Shown here: in pieces, positions 6,457 to 48,676 of the stretch | How the letters are laid out: each line of letters starts with the position of its first letter | Position numbering within the stretch: position 1 is the first letter of the stretch | Source of the DNA: Peribolospora baueri | Taxonomy: Eukaryota | Length of the DNA: 64,000 bases | Direction: 5' to 3' | Assembly (NCBI GenBank): GCA_029717555.1 | Contig: JAMDHS010000020.1 | Span: 186,001-250,000 of the forward strand | Notes under the pieces: generated by a model | What the model was told of the DNA's origin: nothing | The model's database searches: none | Seen by the model: only the letters and a program-made list of their open reading frames with translations | Made by a program: the position numbers and the translations under genes

Positions 6457-9400
6457 ATGGGCTGGCTGCCGCGACGGACGGCGCACAAGTCGAGACGGGC
6501 CAGCGCCTTGTCGCTCTCGCTCCTCCTCGCTCTCGTAGCCCCGGCCACTCTCCTGAGCCCCGTGGAGGCGGCCGAGTCCAGCTACACGCCGGTACCAAGG
6601 TGAGCGACCGACGGCGCACCGGTGCTCTCGCTCGTCAGACACCCCGAGGAAGCGCCACCGAGACGTCCTTCTCACACGCCCTCCCATCTCTTCATCGCCG
6701 TTTCCATGACGCATTCAGATGGGGACACGCATCCACCCTCCTTTCCAACGCCATGCTTGTCCATGGCGGCAAGACCGCCGGCACCGGCGGTTACACCTAC
6801 ACTTCCGCTCCCAATACCGGCGATCTCCTCTCTCTCGATCTCACTCAGCCCTTTTCCGTCTCCTCCCCTCCGTGGAAGCTCGTCTCCCTTTCCGATCCAC
6901 TTTCGGCCTCTGCAATGGCACCCCCCACACCCAGCGTTGCCTTTCACACCCTTACCCCCCTCTCCGCGACCGAGCTCCTGCTCTTCGGAGGAGACTCTAC
7001 CGGCTCGGAGCCCGTTCAAACGAACAATGACTCCGCCTGGCTCCTCTCTCTCACCACCACCTCCTCTTCCTCCTCGTCCCTACAACCCAACTGGACCCAG
7101 CCTGTGACGGGCTGGGACGGGGAGCCGATCCGTCGAATGGGTCACACCGCCGTAGCGAGTAATGGCAGGGTGTGGTACATGGGCGGAGAGAAGGACGACG
7201 GCAGCGGCGCCGTCTGGGCCGACACGTACAGCTTCGACACCCGCTCCGCCTCTGCCCTCGCCTCCGCCTCTTTCCAAACCAACGCGCCCGCCCCGAGCCC
7301 TATATGGGGACACACGGCGACGCTCTTCAGCACGGGCATCGTATACGTCCTCGGAGGCGTGGGCCCGACGGGCCTTAACTCGCTCGACACTGTGAAAGTG
7401 TACGACACGCTCACAGATACTTGGACATCCGTCCCCTGCTCCGGGTCCGCCCCATCACCTCGAAGGAATCACGTCGCCGTCGCTCTTCCCGGCGACAAGA
7501 TCCTCGTCCACGGCGGCGCGGACCAGGCCGGCACGACGGCGTACGCAGACATGGCCGTCCTCGACACAAAGTCCAACCCGCCCACGTGGTCCACGCTCAA
7601 CGCCTCGGCCGGCGGCCCCGGGCCCGGGCCCGTCTACTCTCACTCGGCCGTCGCCTTGGGTCAGCGCGTCGTCTTCGCCTTTGGATACGCCAACTCGGTC
7701 CCCGCTCCAGCCGACGTGTTCGTGTACGACGCTCAGTCGGACGCTTGGTCCGCGACATACGTCCCTGACCTGTCGTCTTCCGCCGGTGATGCCGGCGGCG
7801 ACAACGGCTCTGGCTCATCGTCAGGCTCCCCTGCCGGCGTGCCTACCCCGACAGGGACGCCTTCGGGCACGTCTGGAGAATTACCCGGTGGCACGGCTTC
7901 CAGCTTCTCGGGCTCGGGCGACAGTACGTCGACGGGCGCCAAAGCGGGCGCGACGGTCGGCGCGATCGTCGCTCTGGGCCTCGTCGCTGGCGCGGGGTAC
8001 TTCTACTACACCCGCCACCTTCACCGGGGGGGTGCGAGGGACGGCGCGTTTGGGTGGAAGCGAAGCGGCGGAGAGGGCGCGGTGGGATTGATCGGTGGAC
8101 GTGGCGGCGTGGACGGCGGGGAGGGGCGGGAGGACGATTACGATTACGGCTCCACCCTCGAGAAGGGCCTGGGCATGGCCGCGCTCGGCATCGGCAGGCC
8201 CCGCGGCGTCAAGAGGCCGTGGGCAACGTCGAACGCGGCGGCTGCCTCTCCCGTCGGTCGAGGTCGAGGATCGCCGAAAGTGATGCGCGAGCGTCTCGTC
8301 GCCTTCCTCCCCGTTGCGGCGGGCGCCTTCCGCGCCGGAGGCTCCAAACAACCTCGCTTCGACATGCTGGCGGATGAAGACGAAGACGAGAACGACGAGG
8401 ACGGCGTGCACGGCGCCTGGGGACGCCGGACCGCGTCGGGACGAGGGCGCGTCGCGACGAGCTTGGATTTGGACGAGCAGCGCGACGCGGAGGCCATGGG
8501 CGGATGGCGGTCGGGACGACTAGGTTCGACGGATGGTGGTGGTGGTGGAGGCGAGCACGTGTATGGGAGGTTGAACGGATATGACGATCCCTTCGATGAC
8601 CAGCACGACGGAGGCAGCAGCGTCGTGGGCTTCGACACGTCTCGCGACGAGGCCGTGTACGCCGCCGCCGAGGCGAGTGGGTCTAGCGTTCAACTCGTGC
8701 CCGCGGCGGCGGTCGGGTGGAGAGGCGGGAGCAAGCGCAAGGCGCCGCCGGCTTTTGAGGAAGGAGACGACGATGACGACGCCTCTGCGGCCTCCTTCTC
8801 GTCCGAGGCGGCGCTTTCGGAGACCGAGGGCCGACGCACGCCCGCGCCCGCTCTCGTCCCGACGGAGGAGAGCGGGACTTCGACTACGCTCACCGTCGGT
8901 CAGACGAGCGTCGGCAGCGAAGGAGGAGGATCGCCGCTGAAGCGCTCGCCGGGCTTTGTTTCATTTTCCGATGCCTCGCCCAAGATCAGGCGCTCTAGCT
9001 CCTCCTTCTCGTCCAACCTGGCCGCCACGGCCATCCTCTCCCCTCCTCCGCTCGGCACCTCCATCTCCACGCCCAACCCCATGATTCGAAGATCCGGCAC
9101 GTGGTGGGATCGGTTCTTGTCCAGCTCCTTCCTCGAGCGCACCACCTCTGGTCAGCTACGCCCCGGCCCGCGAGCCAGCGAGCCCATCCGAGATCCTGCG
9201 CCCGCTCCGACGCTCGCGCCCGTTGCCGAAGCCGGCTCGTCCCCGTCGTCTCCTGAGGACAGTCAGTTCTCCAACCCTCATCCTCACGCCGAGGACTTTG
9301 CCAGATCGTCGCGCGAGGACGGGTTCCGCGACGGCAGATCGACGGCGGAGAAGGACGATGTGGCGAGACGAAGAAGCGGCGGCGGCGGCGGCGATCCGCT

Positions 9401-10340
9401 ACGCTCCGCCGGTGCGCACGGCCGGTCTCTGTCAAGTCTGCAGAGCGCGAGGACGGCGACGAGCAGCCAGCTGGAGGATCGGGTGCGGACGATGGACGTG
9501 GTGCAACGGATGCCCACGGCCAGCAGCAGCATTGGAAGCAGCCATGTCATCGAGAGTCCTGATTGCGAGTCGTTTGATGAGCACGATCACGCGATGGAGG
9601 ATGGCCGATGGAATGCGTCCGGACGTCCTCTGCTTTCCTCCCCATCGACCGTCGCTTCTCCGCCGTCGCCTTCGGTTTATGCGCCCACGCCTTCCATCAC
9701 CGCACTGTCCCCTTCCTCCACATCGGCAGGGCTGCTAAGGAGTCCGGAGGGAGAGGTGGTGTGGGACGGTCCGGCCATGATGTCCAGTCTGGCCGCTTTG
9801 ATGGAGGAGCCGGCAGAGATGTCCCCCGTGGATGTAGATGGCGGCGATCCTGCCGAGCCGACGTTCTCGCCCACGAACCTTTGGTCGTGGTCTCGACCGA
9901 AGGACGGAGGGGAAGCGGCCGGTTTTGATGGTCCGACTTCGACCGTGTCGTCGCCGGCTCGGCCTCGACCGACATCGACATCGACGGGGAGGAGGGTGCT
10001 GGATCGCGTGCGTGAGATTGAGCAGCGGCAGTCATTGCTCTCCGACCGGGCCTACCCCTCCCCAGAGTCGGCGTACGCGGCGAGCCCGTCTCGCCTTGCG
10101 CTCGCCCGCGTCAGCATCCCCACCTCCCCCTCCTCCTCTCCCGCGTCGTCCCGACCGGCCTTCTCAGCCTTGGCCTCCCCGGCGTCCGCTGTCGGCGTGT
10201 CCAGCCCGTCGTCAGGCGTCGGTATGGAGAGCACGCTAAGCCCGGCGACGAGGAGCAAGTACCGGCACGGCCTCGTGCCCAAGCCGACGCTCTTCGTCGC
10301 CAACCCTGACGAGCGCCGTTCGTCTTCGACCTCCACCTAA
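6457..10340 (+). CDS. Type I membrane protein: signal peptide, Kelch/galactose-oxidase-like beta-propeller, one TM helix, long disordered cytoplasmic tail
   Basis: Exon 1 (6457-6599) encodes a hydrophobic signal. Intron 6600-6718 joins PVPR|WGHA. Repeated Kelch motifs: HGG, FGG, MGG, LGG, R-x-x-H. TM segment ATVGAIVALGLVAGAGYFYY. Tail ends KPTLFVANPD...*. Confidence 0.85.
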
Positions 10341-11603: not shown

Positions 11604-12637
11604 ATGGCCCGCGTCTTCTGCATCCCAGGCATCGTCCTCCTCTCCGTAGCCACCATGCTCCTCCTTCTCTCCTCCATCTCCCTCCCCGTCCAGCCCGCTT
11701 TCGACCTCGTCTCCGCCGACTTTGGAAGCAATCTCAACAAGTCCACCACCCCCAATGGGCTCCCGACCATGCAGAGTCTGAGGGTGAGTGAGCGGGCCGG
11801 ATGGCACCAGGAAGGAGGATGATCATGACGAGGGACGGAGAGCGTCGTTCGTGCCAGCGCTGTGGACGATGATGGCGCAGTCGTTGTCCACCAGCGCTGA
11901 GGTCCTCATCCGTGCGTTACATCTTCCCCCATCAGCTCGGCATCTGGGGCTACTGCTATCAAAAGGTCGGCTCCAGTGACTGGACCTGCAGGAATGAAGG
12001 TGTCGGTTATGATTTCCGTGCGTCGCCCCTTCTCCTCCCCCCTTCCTCTGCTGGGATGTAAAGCTCACGTCGGCCGCACCTCCCCGCTTGGTATCCACGT
12101 AGAAATGTTTGACCCGACGGGCAACAACTCCCACACGATCCAGGCCAGCTGGACGCGCGGCACGGTCATTACCGTCGTCGGTGAGTGCCATTCTCCGGAT
12201 CGAAGAAAGAAGGGAAGCCCTGTCGCCGTCCCGTCAACCCGCGCTCACCTCGCCCGGCTCACCGCCTCCCTCCAGCTCTGGCCGCGACGGTGATCGCGTT
12301 CGCACTCTCCTTCTCCGAGCATGTCTTTGTCACCCTCCTATCCTCCCTAACCTCCTTCTTCGCCGCCCTCGTCACCCTGCTCGCCTTCATCATCGACATC
12401 GTCCTCTTCGTCTACGCTCGCCACGAGATTCAAGCCACTACTATCGCCAACGTCCACGCAGGCTCCGCCTTCTGGATGACCCTCGCCGCCTTTATCCTTC
12501 TCCTCCTCGCCGGTTGTACTGTCTGCTTCGGCAGGAGGCAGGACAAGAGGTCTAGGGGAAGCGGTGCCTACGCCCAGGACAACTACCCGCTCAAGCGCTC
12601 CCGACAGAGGGTCCTCGAGGCCTTCCGAAGGAACTGA
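11604..12637 (+). CDS. SUR7/PalI (Rim9-like) family tetraspan membrane protein; multi-exon
   Basis: N-terminal TM ending SISLP, then spliced LGIWGYC, then three more TM helices (LAFIIDIVLF, GSAFWMTL) and a short basic tail. Confidence 0.85.
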
Positions 12638-29102: not shown

Positions 29103-31500
29103 TCAGGTCGGGCGGAGGGCAAAGTCGTTTTCGGCCGTGGGCACGGAGAGGATGCGGAGGCTGGCGGGGCATGACAAAAAAGCGAAGAGGGTGAGTGAGA
29201 CGACGAGGACAAAAAAAAAAGAAAGCTCGGATCGACGCTCACGTGTTGGTGTGACCCAGGCCGCCCTTCCAGCCCTGAACAGCAATCACGGTGGCGCCCT
29301 TCTTGACGATGCCGAGCTTGAGCGCCTCGGCAAGGCCAAAGCGGATTCGGTTGTCCACGTCGGTCTGCCAGCCCTCGTTGTTGTCCGGTCTCGGTTCGTT
29401 GTAGAAGAGCGGGTAGCAGCCGCGGTGGAGGTGGGTGACGCGCGCGACTGCCCTGTTGCGCGTCACAACGAGGATCGGGCAGCTCGGCCGGTACTTGCTC
29501 ACCATGCGGGCCGTGTTGCCGGACGTGGACATAAGCAGGATCGCGCCGGCGTTCTGCTCCAGTGACGCGGACACGGCCGCCATGGCGATCGTCTCCGTCG
29601 TCTCGGTGGGGACCGGAGCGAGGCTGCGCAGCTCGTTGTAGTTGGCCGTATAGGCGATGCTTTGCTCGGCCAGGTATGCGGTCTCGGCCATCATCGTCAC
29701 CGCCTCGGTCGGGTAGGCGCCCTTGGCCGTCTCACCGGAGAGCATCACGCAGTCGGCGCCGTCCAGGACGGCGTTGGCCACATCGGACACCTCGGCGCGC
29801 GTCGGGCGGTTGTTGTGGATCATCGACTCGAGCATCTGGGTGGCGCAGATGACCGGCTTGCCGGCGATGTTGCTTTGCGTGGAGGGGAAAGGGGAGCGTT
29901 CCAAAGGCTTGTCAGCACTCGAGGAAACGAATCGAGAGGACTATCGAGCCGCTCGAAGGGATCACAAAGACAAAAGATACGTCGGCAGATCGCCCCCTCG
30001 GGGAAACGATCCGGTAATAGGGAACAAAGACGAATCCTCTCCGTCAACGGGCCGGCTCCGACCGACCGCCCTCCACAACCGACTCACCACTTGGCAATCA
30101 TCATCTTCTGCGCCATGAACACCTGGCTGGCGGGGATCTCGATGCCAAGGTCGCCCCTGGCGACCATGATCCCGTCGGACTCTTTGAGGATCTCGTCAAA
30201 GTTGTACACGCCCTGGTGGTTCTCGATCTTGGAGATGATGCGGATGTGGGCGCCCTTCTCGCCGAGGATGGAGCGGATGGTGCGGACATCGTCGCCGCGA
30301 CGGATGAAGGAGGCAAAGATCATGTCCACGTTCTGCTCCACACCAAAGAGCAGATCCTGCCTGTCCTTCTCCGAGATGGCGGGCAGGTCGACGTCAGTGA
30401 GAGGCAAGTTGACGCCTTTCTTGGACGAGAGCACGCCGTTGTTGGCGCACCGCACGCGGACCATCGTGTCGGACTCGACGGCCAGAACCTCGAGGGACTG
30501 TCAGGGAGGAAAGAAGGGGAGCGATGATGAGGCGATCATCGACGAGGGGGAAGAAAAAAGGAAGAGAGGACGCACGAGAATGCCGTCATCGACGTAAATG
30601 ACGCGACCGGGCTCGACCTTCTTGGGCAGGTTCTTGTAGTCGACGTAGAGGTGCTTGTCGTCGGAAGCCTGAGCGTACTTGTCGTCGGTGGTGACGTAAA
30701 ACTCGTGGCCGATCTTGACGGGGATCTGCAGGGGAAGGGGAGCGGAGAGATGAGCGCGGACTCTTACACGGTCCTCCCTGGAGGGGCACTCACATCCTTG
30801 CCATCGACGATCATACCCGTTCGCATCTCCGGACCCTTGGTGTCAAGAGCGATGGCGAGAGGGCGGCCCTGGGGAGCATCTGGCGAGCCGAGTCGAAACG
30901 TGACATGACAGAGGCAGGCAGGCGACGAAAGGAAAAAAAAAGATATGGCGAGGTCGCAAAGGCGAAAAGACAGACCGAACGTGAGTCGGACGGTTGTCGA
31001 AGAAAGCCGAACGAGCAAAAAAAAAAAGAAGGAAAAAAGGAGAAAGAGGAAGCAAAGTCAGACCTCTCAACTTGATTCGCTTGGCCGCACGCTGCCCCTC
31101 GTCCTCCGCGCCGTTAGCGGACGAAGAGGGAGGAGCGTCGGCGTCGGCGTAGGAGACGGGCTCACCGGCCACGACCTTGTGGGCGTTATCGACGACGGAC
31201 TTGAAGTACTCGTGCGAGCCGTGGGAGCAATTGATGCGAACGATGTTCATACCCGCCTTGCGGAGGGCGGCCATGGACTCGACACTGTTGGTCTTGGGGC
31301 CGATGGTGGCGATGATCGAGCTGCAAGGCGGGGGGGATATAATATTTAAATGAGCGCGACGTCGTACGAGATCGGTTGGGAGGCTCTAGAGCGAGAGGTT
31401 GTACGCACGTCTTGCGGAGGAACTTGTTGTTCATGTCGTGGTCGAGCGGGTTGAGCGTGGCGAGCCACTCGAGCTGGGACTTCGCGTTTGTGGTGATCAT
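29103..31500 (-). CDS. PYK1: Pyruvate kinase
   Basis: [69 protein letters not shown]. Last exon [18 protein letters not shown] follows intron ~29161-29242. Confidence 0.98.
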
Positions 31501-32526
31501 GTTGGGCGTGGAGGTCTGGTTGACTTGCAGGTGGTTTTTCTTTCGAGGGCGACGGAAGGATCGGCGGGGGGCCGAGGAGGAGAAGGAAGAGGAGGGGGAG
31601 GGTTAGGAGGAGGAGGAGGGTTAGGAGGAGGAGGAGGAAGAAGAAGAAGAAGAAGATGGTGGTGGGCGAGAAGAAAGGAGGTGAAGGTTTGAAATGCGCC
31701 GAGTGGTCGTTGGTTTGTTGGCTGGTTTGTTGGCTGGTTGGTGGGTTGGCTGGCTGGCTGGCTGATGGGTGTCGATCATTATTATTGGTCGGCCAGGTCG
31801 ACGCCCACTCACTCCTCCCTTCCTCACTCCTTGCTTCCTTCCTCCATCCATCCTCACTTCTTCTTTCTTCTCGCCGGGCCGTCACAGAAAAAAACGCGGT
31901 GCTGCCGCAGCCACCAACACCCCAACGTGCGCGCCCTCCCCGTCCGTCCGTCCATCCCGTCCATCCGCGGGCGGTCTTCCTACTTGTCTCTCTTCTCTCT
32001 TTTCTCTGTCTTGTCGGTTCGGGGGGCGATCGACGGAGGCGGATAGAGATCCGATCAGGCGCGCTGGCTGGGCAGCCGCCAGCCGATCAGTTGCCGGAAT
32101 GGACGATGACATAAGCTGGCCCGCTGTCGATGGCAGACACGGCGAGGGCGAGGGCGACCGAGACGGCGACCGAGACGGGTGAGGGAGACGGTGCAAGCGT
32201 GGGAGAGCCGAGCTGGACAACACCAACGAAAACGGCGACCGCCGAGGAACGTGGGTCGGCCAGCTCGTGGTACACCAACCAGCCAAGGGAATCGATTGAC
32301 GAACGGACGAACGGACGGGCTAGCTAGTTGCCTACGTGCCTTTCTCTCCCGCCCCGACCGCACCGACCGTCTTTCGAACATGCGAGCCGCGCGTGCGTGC
32401 GTGTCATGTCATGTCATGACTTGAGATGATGAGATGAATGAGATGATGGGAGAGCGATCGATCGGGATGTAATGATGTAGGATAGGAAACGAAGGAAGGA
32501 AGAAAGGAACGGACGAACGAACGACG

Positions 32527-47440: not shown

Positions 47441-48676
47441 TTAGAAACCTTCTTCCTTGACAACCGTCGACTTCTCTGTTGGATCAAGCACACGGCACAT
47501 TGGCAGGATGAATGAGCGCCAGCAATGGACAGCGCGAGAGCACTGAAGGAGGCCCGACACTCACCGGACACGTAGATACCATCAAGGAATTTACGGATGT
47601 CCTTGTTGCGGACGCGGCAGATGTCGTGGATGGAGGCGGCTATAAAAAGACAGAAGGGCGAACGACGGACGGCGACGAAGGAGTCAGCGGACGCCGTCGC
47701 AGAGCTGTAACGGACTCCCCAACGAAACCAGGTGGCTCCTAAACGGCCAGACTCACCAGATTGAGAAACGTTCTCAATGTCGTTGCCCTCGAGGAGCAAC
47801 TCGTCCTTCTGGGCCTTGGACTCGGATATGGTAACGCCGCCAAGCATGTCGACGTGGCGCACCTGCTTCTCACCCAAGAAGTTACCTAATGTGCGTTCGA
47901 TCCCGAAGGTGAGGAAAAGGAACACGCGAAGGCAGCGTGAGCACACGACCAGAGCATATGCAAAGGGAACCATTCCCTCTTCGGTCCATAATCCAGTAAC
48001 CCCGGCTTCAGGTATCCGTGTCCTTTACCCATCCGTCCCCTCTCCACCCTTGCTCGACTCGCAGCACCTCCAAAGCATTTCGTCCACGCTTCCTGCTAAA
48101 TCGGTCTCCTGTTCCACTCTTACATCCCTCCATAGAACTCGGCTGTCAGCTCGCACTCACGGATCTCGACGCTCTGGCCCTGGGGTCCAATGATGGCGTT
48201 GATGGGAAAGTGGGCGTACACAAGGCGCATCTTGTACTGGAAGCCCTTGGTGACGCCCTTGACCATGTTGGCAATCATGGCCTTGACGGTACGAAGGCAA
48301 GCGACGTGCTTGCGGCCGCCGTGCCAGACAATCATCTTGATCTTGTTCACCTTGCCGTCCGCAGACTTGATGTGTCGGATGTCCATGTTAATGTGCTTGA
48401 CGGCCTGTGGGCGACGAGAAATAGACGGAATGGGTAAGAAAAGCAGTCGCTAGAAATCCCCAGAAGGTGTGCCTCCAATACATGCTGGTCCAACTCCACT
48501 GCGCTCCTTCCACCACCATACGACTGTTCAGGCCACCCCACCCGTAACATGACTGATCGCACACTCGCCTTCTTCAAGCTACCACGGGGACCGCTGACGG
48601 TCACGACCCGAGAGGCGACCGAGACGGTAACGCCCTCGGGGATTTCCAGCTCCTGGTCCTTGTAGATTTGCAACAT
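47441..48676 (-). CDS. RPL9: 60S ribosomal protein L9 (uL6)
   Basis: [71 protein letters not shown]. First intron (48405-48568) is GC-AG. Confidence 0.97.

Follow-up and report, generated by a model that had tools for sequence, protein, structure and literature searches.

The 64,000-nt stretch of DNA analyzed here (the window) carries a pyruvate kinase (PK) gene on its minus strand, running from ATG to TGA at positions 29103..31500. Seven exons (31500-31409, 31320-31166, 30879-30794, 30725-30576, 30497-30088, 29872-29243, and 29160-29103, all on the minus strand) encode a 526-aa product, and the spliced translation is intact. The six introns are all of the GT-AG type and measure, in order, 88, 286, 68, 78, 215, and 82 nt. 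The PK barrel family (Pfam PF00224) scored 60, 211.5, and 113.1 bits on exons 2, 5, and 6, and the PK_C family (PF02887) scored 113.6 bits; every one of these values lies above the curated cut-off. The exons are colinear with the Pfam PK profile, whose positions 5-55, 58-81, 84-133, 134-269, and 270-328 follow one another along the gene, with exons 3 and 4 supplying positions 58-81 and 84-133. The gene product belongs to the PK family on three counts: both domains are present, the protein is full-length and colinear after splicing, and the loop at the exon 2/exon 3 junction is typical of the family.

Among the matches listed, the nearest proteins are basidiomycete PKs at 75-80% identity. Exon 2 matched best to Ustilago trichophora and the C-terminal exon to Tilletia horrida (80% identity in each case, among the matches listed). 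Identity of the C-terminal exon to the PKs of Ceraceosorus, Ustilago, Malassezia, rusts, and Microbotryomycetes was ∼69-76%. Neither a relative closer than 80% nor a copy of the window's own protein was found among the matches listed, and the host therefore belongs to a poorly sampled basidiomycete lineage.

Architecture of Intron 2

Intron 2 (31165-30880, minus strand; 286 nt) is the longest of the six PK introns. Exon 2 (31166..31320, minus strand) ends in ...HKVVA followed by the first base of a split codon, that is, in phase 1 (GCC G|GTGAGC), and exon 3 (30794..30879, minus strand) starts with the corresponding (D). The main 5' splice site, GTGAGC (31160..31165, minus strand), is identical as a hexamer to the donor of intron 6. 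The first 102 nt of the intron (31064..31165, minus strand), which we refer to as the stretch, continue the exon 2 frame for 34 codons, contain no stop, and resemble coding sequence. Within the stretch, a hexanucleotide tandem of 2.7 copies (31135..31150, minus strand; Tandem Repeats Finder) encodes the ADADA part of the peptide. The repeated unit is GCCGAC, and its slippage preserves the reading frame. Further along lie a branch-point-like GCTAAC motif (31113..31118, minus strand), which together with a CAG at 31094-31092 would define a 74-nt mini-intron, and the codons for RAAKRIKLR (31065..31091, minus strand), a sequence that resembles a nuclear localization signal (NLS). These codons and the single base 31064 make up a 28-nt candidate micro-exon.

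The stretch is followed by a candidate second 5' splice site, GTCTGA (31058..31063, minus strand), which lies in the context GAG|GTCTGA and is also in phase 1. The remainder of the intron (30883..31057, minus strand) is pyrimidine-rich in composition and leads to a common 3' splice site, CAG (30880..30882, minus strand), that would serve both donors. The GC content of the stretch is 0.67 and its T content 0.15, while the 184 nt after it (31063-30880) have a GC content of 0.49, with T at 0.44 and A at 0.07. The boundary in composition coincides with an in-phase GT preceded by AG.

Either donor gives an in-frame join to |AT GCT CCC CAG GGC CGC at 30879. Two phase 1 donors, one acceptor, and 102 nt without a stop between the donors constitute the arrangement of an alternative 5' extension. 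Splicing from 31165 is predicted to yield a protein of 526 aa (short form) and splicing from 31063 one of 560 aa (long form). Removal of the 74-nt mini-intron with inclusion of the 28-nt micro-exon would shift the frame and end the protein at 103 aa, and retention of intron 2 would end it at 189 aa. The initial annotation had proposed a splice switch to a nuclear PK at this site. Its account of the intron position, the length rank, the 102-nt open frame, the phase 1 GT at 31063, and the shared acceptor was correct on re-reading, and GCTAAC, CAG, and the 28-nt unit (31064-31091) are present as it described them.

The First Donor Fits the Family, and the Second Departs from Consensus

Loop length was used to compare the two donors. 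We retrieved 127 PKs, and 116 of these contain both of the motifs (SHG and LDTKGPE) that delimit the loop; the 11 that lack a loop motif are mostly shorter, N-terminally incomplete sequences. Loop lengths in the 116 proteins were 26 (1 protein), 27 (55), 28 (48), 29 (10), 30 (1), and 37 (1) residues, so that 103 of the 116 have a loop of 27-28 residues. Use of the GTGAGC donor gives a loop of 28 residues, and the long form would have one of 62. When exon 2 was examined together with the extension, the Pfam PK match ran up to residue 51 and stopped there, precisely at the first donor, and PDB alignments stopped within a few residues of the same point. Because the 28-residue loop, the end of the Pfam match, and the ends of the PDB alignments all fit there, we regard GTGAGC as the real main donor.

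All six PK donors fit GTG[AC]G[TC]. Two further GT donors were read in an L6-family ribosomal protein gene, donors outside PK being chosen by protein continuity; the third intron of that gene is apparently GC-AG. In all eight GT donors, position +3 is G, +5 is G, and +6 is a pyrimidine. GTCTGA has C, G, and A at these positions and differs from the eight at +3, +4, and +6. It does not resemble the 5' splice-site consensus of the organism, as far as this small sample of eight donors defines it, and the description of the second donor as non-consensus was accurate. The motif at the second donor, GGTCTGACTTT, recurs 88 nt deeper in intron 2 as GGTCTGTCTTT (30976-30966), where it is out of phase. 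This recurrence hints that the second-donor motif is part of the repetitive texture of the intron. In the reading that we prefer, the second donor would be unused.

Open Frame and Coding Character of the Stretch

An open frame and an abrupt turn to T-rich sequence had both been offered as cues to a hidden exon. Both are present, but they are ordinary for this genome. Among 34-codon windows with a GC content of at least 0.62, 63% contain no stop; the exon 2 frame is open across all 95 codons of intron 2, and intron 1 is likewise open throughout. A 5' part low in T followed by a pyrimidine-rich 3' part was seen in all four long introns examined, namely PK introns 2 and 5 and two introns of the ribosomal protein gene (48568-48405 and 48160-47886).

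The codon content of the stretch is less readily dismissed. A codon model trained on PK was too strict for a segment that is not PK-like, and a model built on the long open reading frames (ORFs) of the window was used instead; at least one ORF in its training set, lying antisense to PK, was spurious. With this model the stretch scored 0.342 bits/codon in frame, compared with 0.366 for the PK coding sequence, and exceeded 91% of true in-frame windows. In the two remaining sense frames the stretch scored -0.35 and -0.64, with one or more stops in each. A score of 0.342 was reached in 631 of 5,867 true in-frame windows taken from ten reliable long ORFs (10.8%). The corresponding count for non-coding frames was 21 of 29,295 (0.07%; 2 of 11,714 off-frame and 19 of 17,581 antisense), a contrast that is flattered because the background model was trained on those same off-frame and antisense frames. 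Across the whole window, 1,492 of 127,798 windows passed the threshold, mostly in recognizable exons. By visual count, some 10-15 of the passing islands are acidic and of low complexity, and lie in frames that probably do not code for protein. The best score among nine control frames, drawn from the 5' ends of the three other long introns, was 0.05. A homology-free intron finder made too many false calls and merged PK's own introns, and it was excluded as a control; the candidates from a second version were ambiguous and served for visual inspection only.

The codon signal of the stretch reflects mainly its amino acid composition. Synonymous choice taken alone gave p ∼0.055, the synonymous score being matched by 5.5% of stop-free off-frame windows. 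A CAI-like score with PK as reference was 0.446, compared with a minimum of 0.568 over 492 real PK windows, and the RAAKRIKLR part uses codons that are rare in the PK coding sequence (CGT, 1 of 29; CGA, 2 of 29; AGA, 1 of 29; TTG, 1 of 41). The low score and the rare codons together rule out constitutive inclusion in a highly expressed gene. Weak PK-type codon bias of this kind would fit a minor isoform, and also a stretch that is not translated. The null models built here account for neither the NLS-type motif nor the frame-specific resemblance to coding sequence.

These data bear on two readings in which the stretch is not simply removed as intron. If the 34 residues were a lineage-specific insertion that is always included, with GTCTGA as the sole donor, an open and coding-like frame would be expected, as is seen. 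Such an insertion would nevertheless leave a consensus GTGAGC placed exactly where its use restores the family loop length, its CAI-like score falls below all 492 real PK windows, and no PK with a comparable insert was found. We consider it the least probable of the readings weighed here, and highly improbable in its own right.

The second concerns unproductive splicing. GTGAGC, the internal GCTAAC, and the CAG at 31094-31092 could remove the 74-nt mini-intron, so that the 28-nt unit 31091-31064 would be included as a poison micro-exon, shifting the frame and lowering PK output. The dimensions are suitable: 74 nt compares with 68-88 nt for four of the PK introns, the branch-to-AG spacing of ∼21 nt is that of local introns, and inclusion would truncate the protein at 103 aa. 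However, the tract from branch motif to AG is rich in purines, the micro-exon would depend on the same weak GTCTGA donor, and the in-frame coding-likeness of the first 74 nt is left unexplained. This reading seems to us very unlikely.

Conservation and Origin of the Stretch

No insertion was present at this site in any of the 116 PKs or in any of 60 related loci from metagenomes. None of the 60 metagenome loci has an intron at this position (residue 82/83), so an orthologous intron was not found among them. In the closest of these loci (77% identity), the junction region is uninterrupted by introns and the loop has 27 residues. When the peptide encoded by the stretch was compared with the same 60 loci, the best tblastn match had E = 1.1. 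Neither the peptide nor the insertion was found among the 17 + 120 homologues listed. A word-based search with the peptide returned 25 candidates, none with E ≤ 10, and a HMMER search of 1.84 billion cluster representatives gave no hits at E ≤ 0.001. The stretch matched no Pfam family and, at E ≤ 1, no Rfam family. No conservation of the stretch was seen in the sequences searched. As evidence against a young, lineage-specific feature, absence in relatives is weak, because the nearest PKs are only 75-80% identical.

Several origins were tried and rejected. A structured RNA hosted by the intron (a snoRNA, for example) was rejected on the lack of an Rfam match and on a predicted fold of the stretch that is no better than that of shuffled sequences; a hairpin is predicted in the stretch, yet z = -0.87 against shuffles for the stretch alone (the whole intron gave z = -2.13). 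Capture of a fragment of another gene was rejected, as neither of the peptide searches above gave a similar protein. A decayed copy of a neighboring exon was suggested by an alignment of GEPVSYA with GRPLAIA, but at the protein level this gave p = 0.91 against the whole of PK and p = 0.28 against the local 37 aa, and the best DNA match (p = 0.05) lay in a different exon. Searches within the window for a second copy of the stretch, and within the stretch for an inverted repeat, found neither.

The NLS-like Motif

The classical monopartite NLS consensus is K-(K/R)-X-(K/R). KRIK, which lies within RAAKRIKLR at the end of the low-complexity insert, fits this core and is a candidate monopartite NLS. 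Its near-match to the c-Myc NLS, pointed out in the initial annotation, holds against the c-Myc sequence PAAKRVKLD as quoted in PMC7069228: 7 of 9 positions agree when I is counted for V, and the core AAKR[V/I]KL is common to both. The flanking residues are P and D in c-Myc and R and R here, and the resemblance is one of sequence only. The general pattern K[KR]x[KR] was found in 3.0-4.4% of 34-aa windows lacking a stop; among true protein windows its frequency was 4.0%. The narrower pattern AKR[IVL]K occurs in 0.046% of stop-free 34-aa windows.

If the motif were functional, a minor 560-aa PK made from donor 31063 would exist beside the major 526-aa cytosolic PK made from donor 31165. The insert would add 34 disordered residues to the loop that connects the first helix of the barrel with the second strand, ending in AAKRIKL, which would send a fraction of the enzyme to the nucleus. 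Several features of the locus are consistent with such an isoform. Both donors have the same phase and lead to a single acceptor, a significant coding-like score is confined to the exon frame of the stretch, and the K-R-x-K motif agrees with c-Myc to the extent given above. The insertion site is a loop that varies in length among PKs (26-37 residues) and at which the PDB alignments stop, and weak PK-type codon bias would be expected of a minor isoform. Precedents are found in passages on Ustilago maydis GAPDH splicing (PMC3798556) and on yeast Pyk1 at chromatin (PMC7838282; PMC9726891). Against this stand a donor that is off-consensus at three positions and has to compete with a consensus donor upstream, the out-of-phase recurrence of its motif in the same intron, a peptide that is an orphan, with no PK in any search carrying an insert here, and synonymous codon choice that is not significant alone. 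Productive alternative 5' sites also have a low prior in basidiomycetes.

We attempted to put these considerations on a common scale. For any one basidiomycete intron, the prior probability of an alternative 5' extension that is both productive and selected was assumed to be ∼0.1% or less. The coding-like score favors translation with a likelihood ratio of ∼25-150, and the motif, if targeting is assumed, raises the odds by a few-fold more. The weakness of the donor and the in-phase position of the GT at the boundary approximately offset each other. Prior and likelihood factors together place the NLS-bearing isoform at about one in four, and we accordingly treat it as possible but doubtful.

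Translation need not imply targeting. The stretch may be translated now, or may have been until recently, through occasional use of the second donor and without any nuclear function, either as a neutral minor product or as the relic of a lineage-specific loop insertion that is now spliced out. This would be in keeping with a segment that is coding-like in frame yet lacks PK codon bias, with frame-preserving hexanucleotide slippage, and with the similar frequency of K[KR]x[KR] in real proteins (4.0%) and in stop-free frames of any kind (4.4%). The weak donor and the non-conservation count against it just as they do against a nuclear isoform, and nothing positive separates it from chance. We judge it unlikely.

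Discussion

The explanation that we prefer, and to which we give about an even chance, is that intron 2 is an ordinary intron and that GTCTGA, if used at all, is used at noise level. Splicing between the consensus donor GTGAGC (31165) and the acceptor CAG (30880) would remove one 286-nt intron and produce the canonical 526-aa cytosolic PK. The 102-nt stretch would then be intronic, and both its lack of stops and the turn toward T-rich sequence would be normal for long introns in this GC-rich basidiomycete. The coding-like amino acid content and the KRIK motif would be an unselected coincidence, one aided by the frame-preserving GCCGAC slippage repeat and by a purine-rich GAG/GAC run.

Cryptic targeting signals in fungal glycolytic enzymes are known. 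The initial annotation cited the use of alternative splicing and read-through by U. maydis for peroxisomal signals, and this is confirmed in the passages of PMC3798556 on the subject. In U. maydis, alternative splicing of approximately 10% of the GAPDH mRNA adds a PTS1, and PGK gains a PTS1 by stop-codon read-through (Freitag et al., 2012, as cited in PMC3798556). The candidate isoform would be like these in that a minor mRNA form of a basidiomycete glycolytic enzyme adds a short targeting signal, and in that the signal lies concealed in what would usually be taken for non-coding sequence. The differences are also clear. The U. maydis signal is a C-terminal PTS1 that has been demonstrated experimentally and is conserved among fungi, as described in the same passages, whereas the candidate here would be an internal NLS in a barrel loop, reached by an alternative 5' site 102 nt downstream.

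A nuclear location for PK would have parallels as well. The initial annotation cited nuclear roles of mammalian PKM2; nuclear, chromatin-directed roles of PK are documented in PMC12341297, and yeast Pyk1 is described as acting on chromatin in the SESAME complex (PMC7838282; PMC9726891). PK has recognized chromatin roles in yeast and mammals, and there is continuing debate over what determines the nuclear share of a glycolytic enzyme. Neither PKM2 nor Pyk1 is known to depend on an NLS-bearing splice insertion at this loop. PKM1 and PKM2 differ by mutually exclusive exons elsewhere in the protein. Among the literature listings searched, none reported a fungal PK isoform whose NLS is encoded by splicing.

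The NLS isoform is an attractive candidate, as yet unproven, and would be a new form of a known fungal strategy. If real, it would show that cryptic targeting through alternative splicing, described for peroxisomes, can also serve the nucleus, and would represent a second class of such targeting in fungal glycolysis. An NLS encoded by splicing would also be a clean, mutable switch and a genetic handle on nuclear PK function, because mutation of KRIK or of the donor would separate the nuclear from the metabolic role. If intron 2 is only an intron, the lesson is one of caution: open frames and switches in composition are common in the introns of GC-rich fungal genomes, and such features should not be taken for hidden exons.

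The ordinary intron that we favor has its own point of comparison in Cryptococcus neoformans, where alternative splice-site events drop sharply with the detection threshold, according to the part of PMC5006051 that deals with them. Intron 2 resembles an ordinary long basidiomycete intron, with non-productive use of alternative splice sites at a low level, in that a single donor is strong, other donors would be weak and cryptic if they exist, and the 3' part is rich in pyrimidines. It differs in its in-frame, coding-like 5' part, which is atypical of the other long introns examined. The features of the locus that count against an ordinary intron are the high in-frame codon score, the far lower scores of the control frames, the rarity of the motif, and the position of the boundary at an in-phase GT.

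Composition and predicted folding of long introns

Four long introns in the window, all on the minus strand and 164–286 nt in length, were compared: pyruvate kinase (PK) introns 2 (30880–31165) and 5 (29873–30087) and two introns of a ribosomal protein L6-family gene (48405–48568 and 47886–48160). In all four, the 5′ 50–200 nt are low in T and mostly G/purine-rich, and pyrimidine-rich sequence appears only nearer the 3′ end. Long introns of this genome seem in general to be divided in this way. The 164-nt intron at 48405–48568 is the first of the L6-family (uL6/RPL9-like) gene, which lies on the minus strand. It appears to be of the GC-AG type (AAG/GCGAGT ... CCCACAG/GCC); no GT in the right phase restores conserved protein continuity.

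In the predicted minimum-free-energy fold of PK intron 2, the sequence around the 5′ splice site (GUGAGCC, 31159–31165) pairs with GGCUCGC (30883–30889, minus strand), which immediately precedes the 3′ CAG. For PK intron 5, folding likewise predicted a helix that joins the two ends, between 30069–30077 (minus strand) and the 3′ end of the intron. Both helices may have arisen by chance, since the whole-intron fold z-scores are only −2.13 (intron 2) and −0.29 (intron 5).

Non-coding sequence with coding-like features

The PK start codon is closely preceded by a trinucleotide microsatellite (31574–31656), whose plus strand reads (GAG)n followed by (GAA)n and whose gene strand reads CTC/TTC; 3-periodic low-complexity sequence is therefore present in non-coding parts of the PK locus too. 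Acidic (D/E-rich), stop-free stretches (e.g., 12353–12457, 8930–9085, and 10109–10225, all on the minus strand) pass as coding on the codon model, which was trained on the window's long ORFs. These stretches, apparently antisense to probable genes as judged by eye, give rise to spurious exon calls in this genome.

Relatives of the pyruvate kinase

The PK shares at most 80% identity with any protein of a 5.8-billion-cluster collection, in which the window's own protein was not found. The sequence probably comes from a basidiomycete lineage that is unannotated and sparsely sampled. In one retrieved homologue, the deposited 567-aa model of Ceraceosorus bombacis PK (P0005), a 27-residue segment is directly duplicated internally. 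The duplication is missing from the sister species and probably reflects an artefact of gene modelling or assembly.
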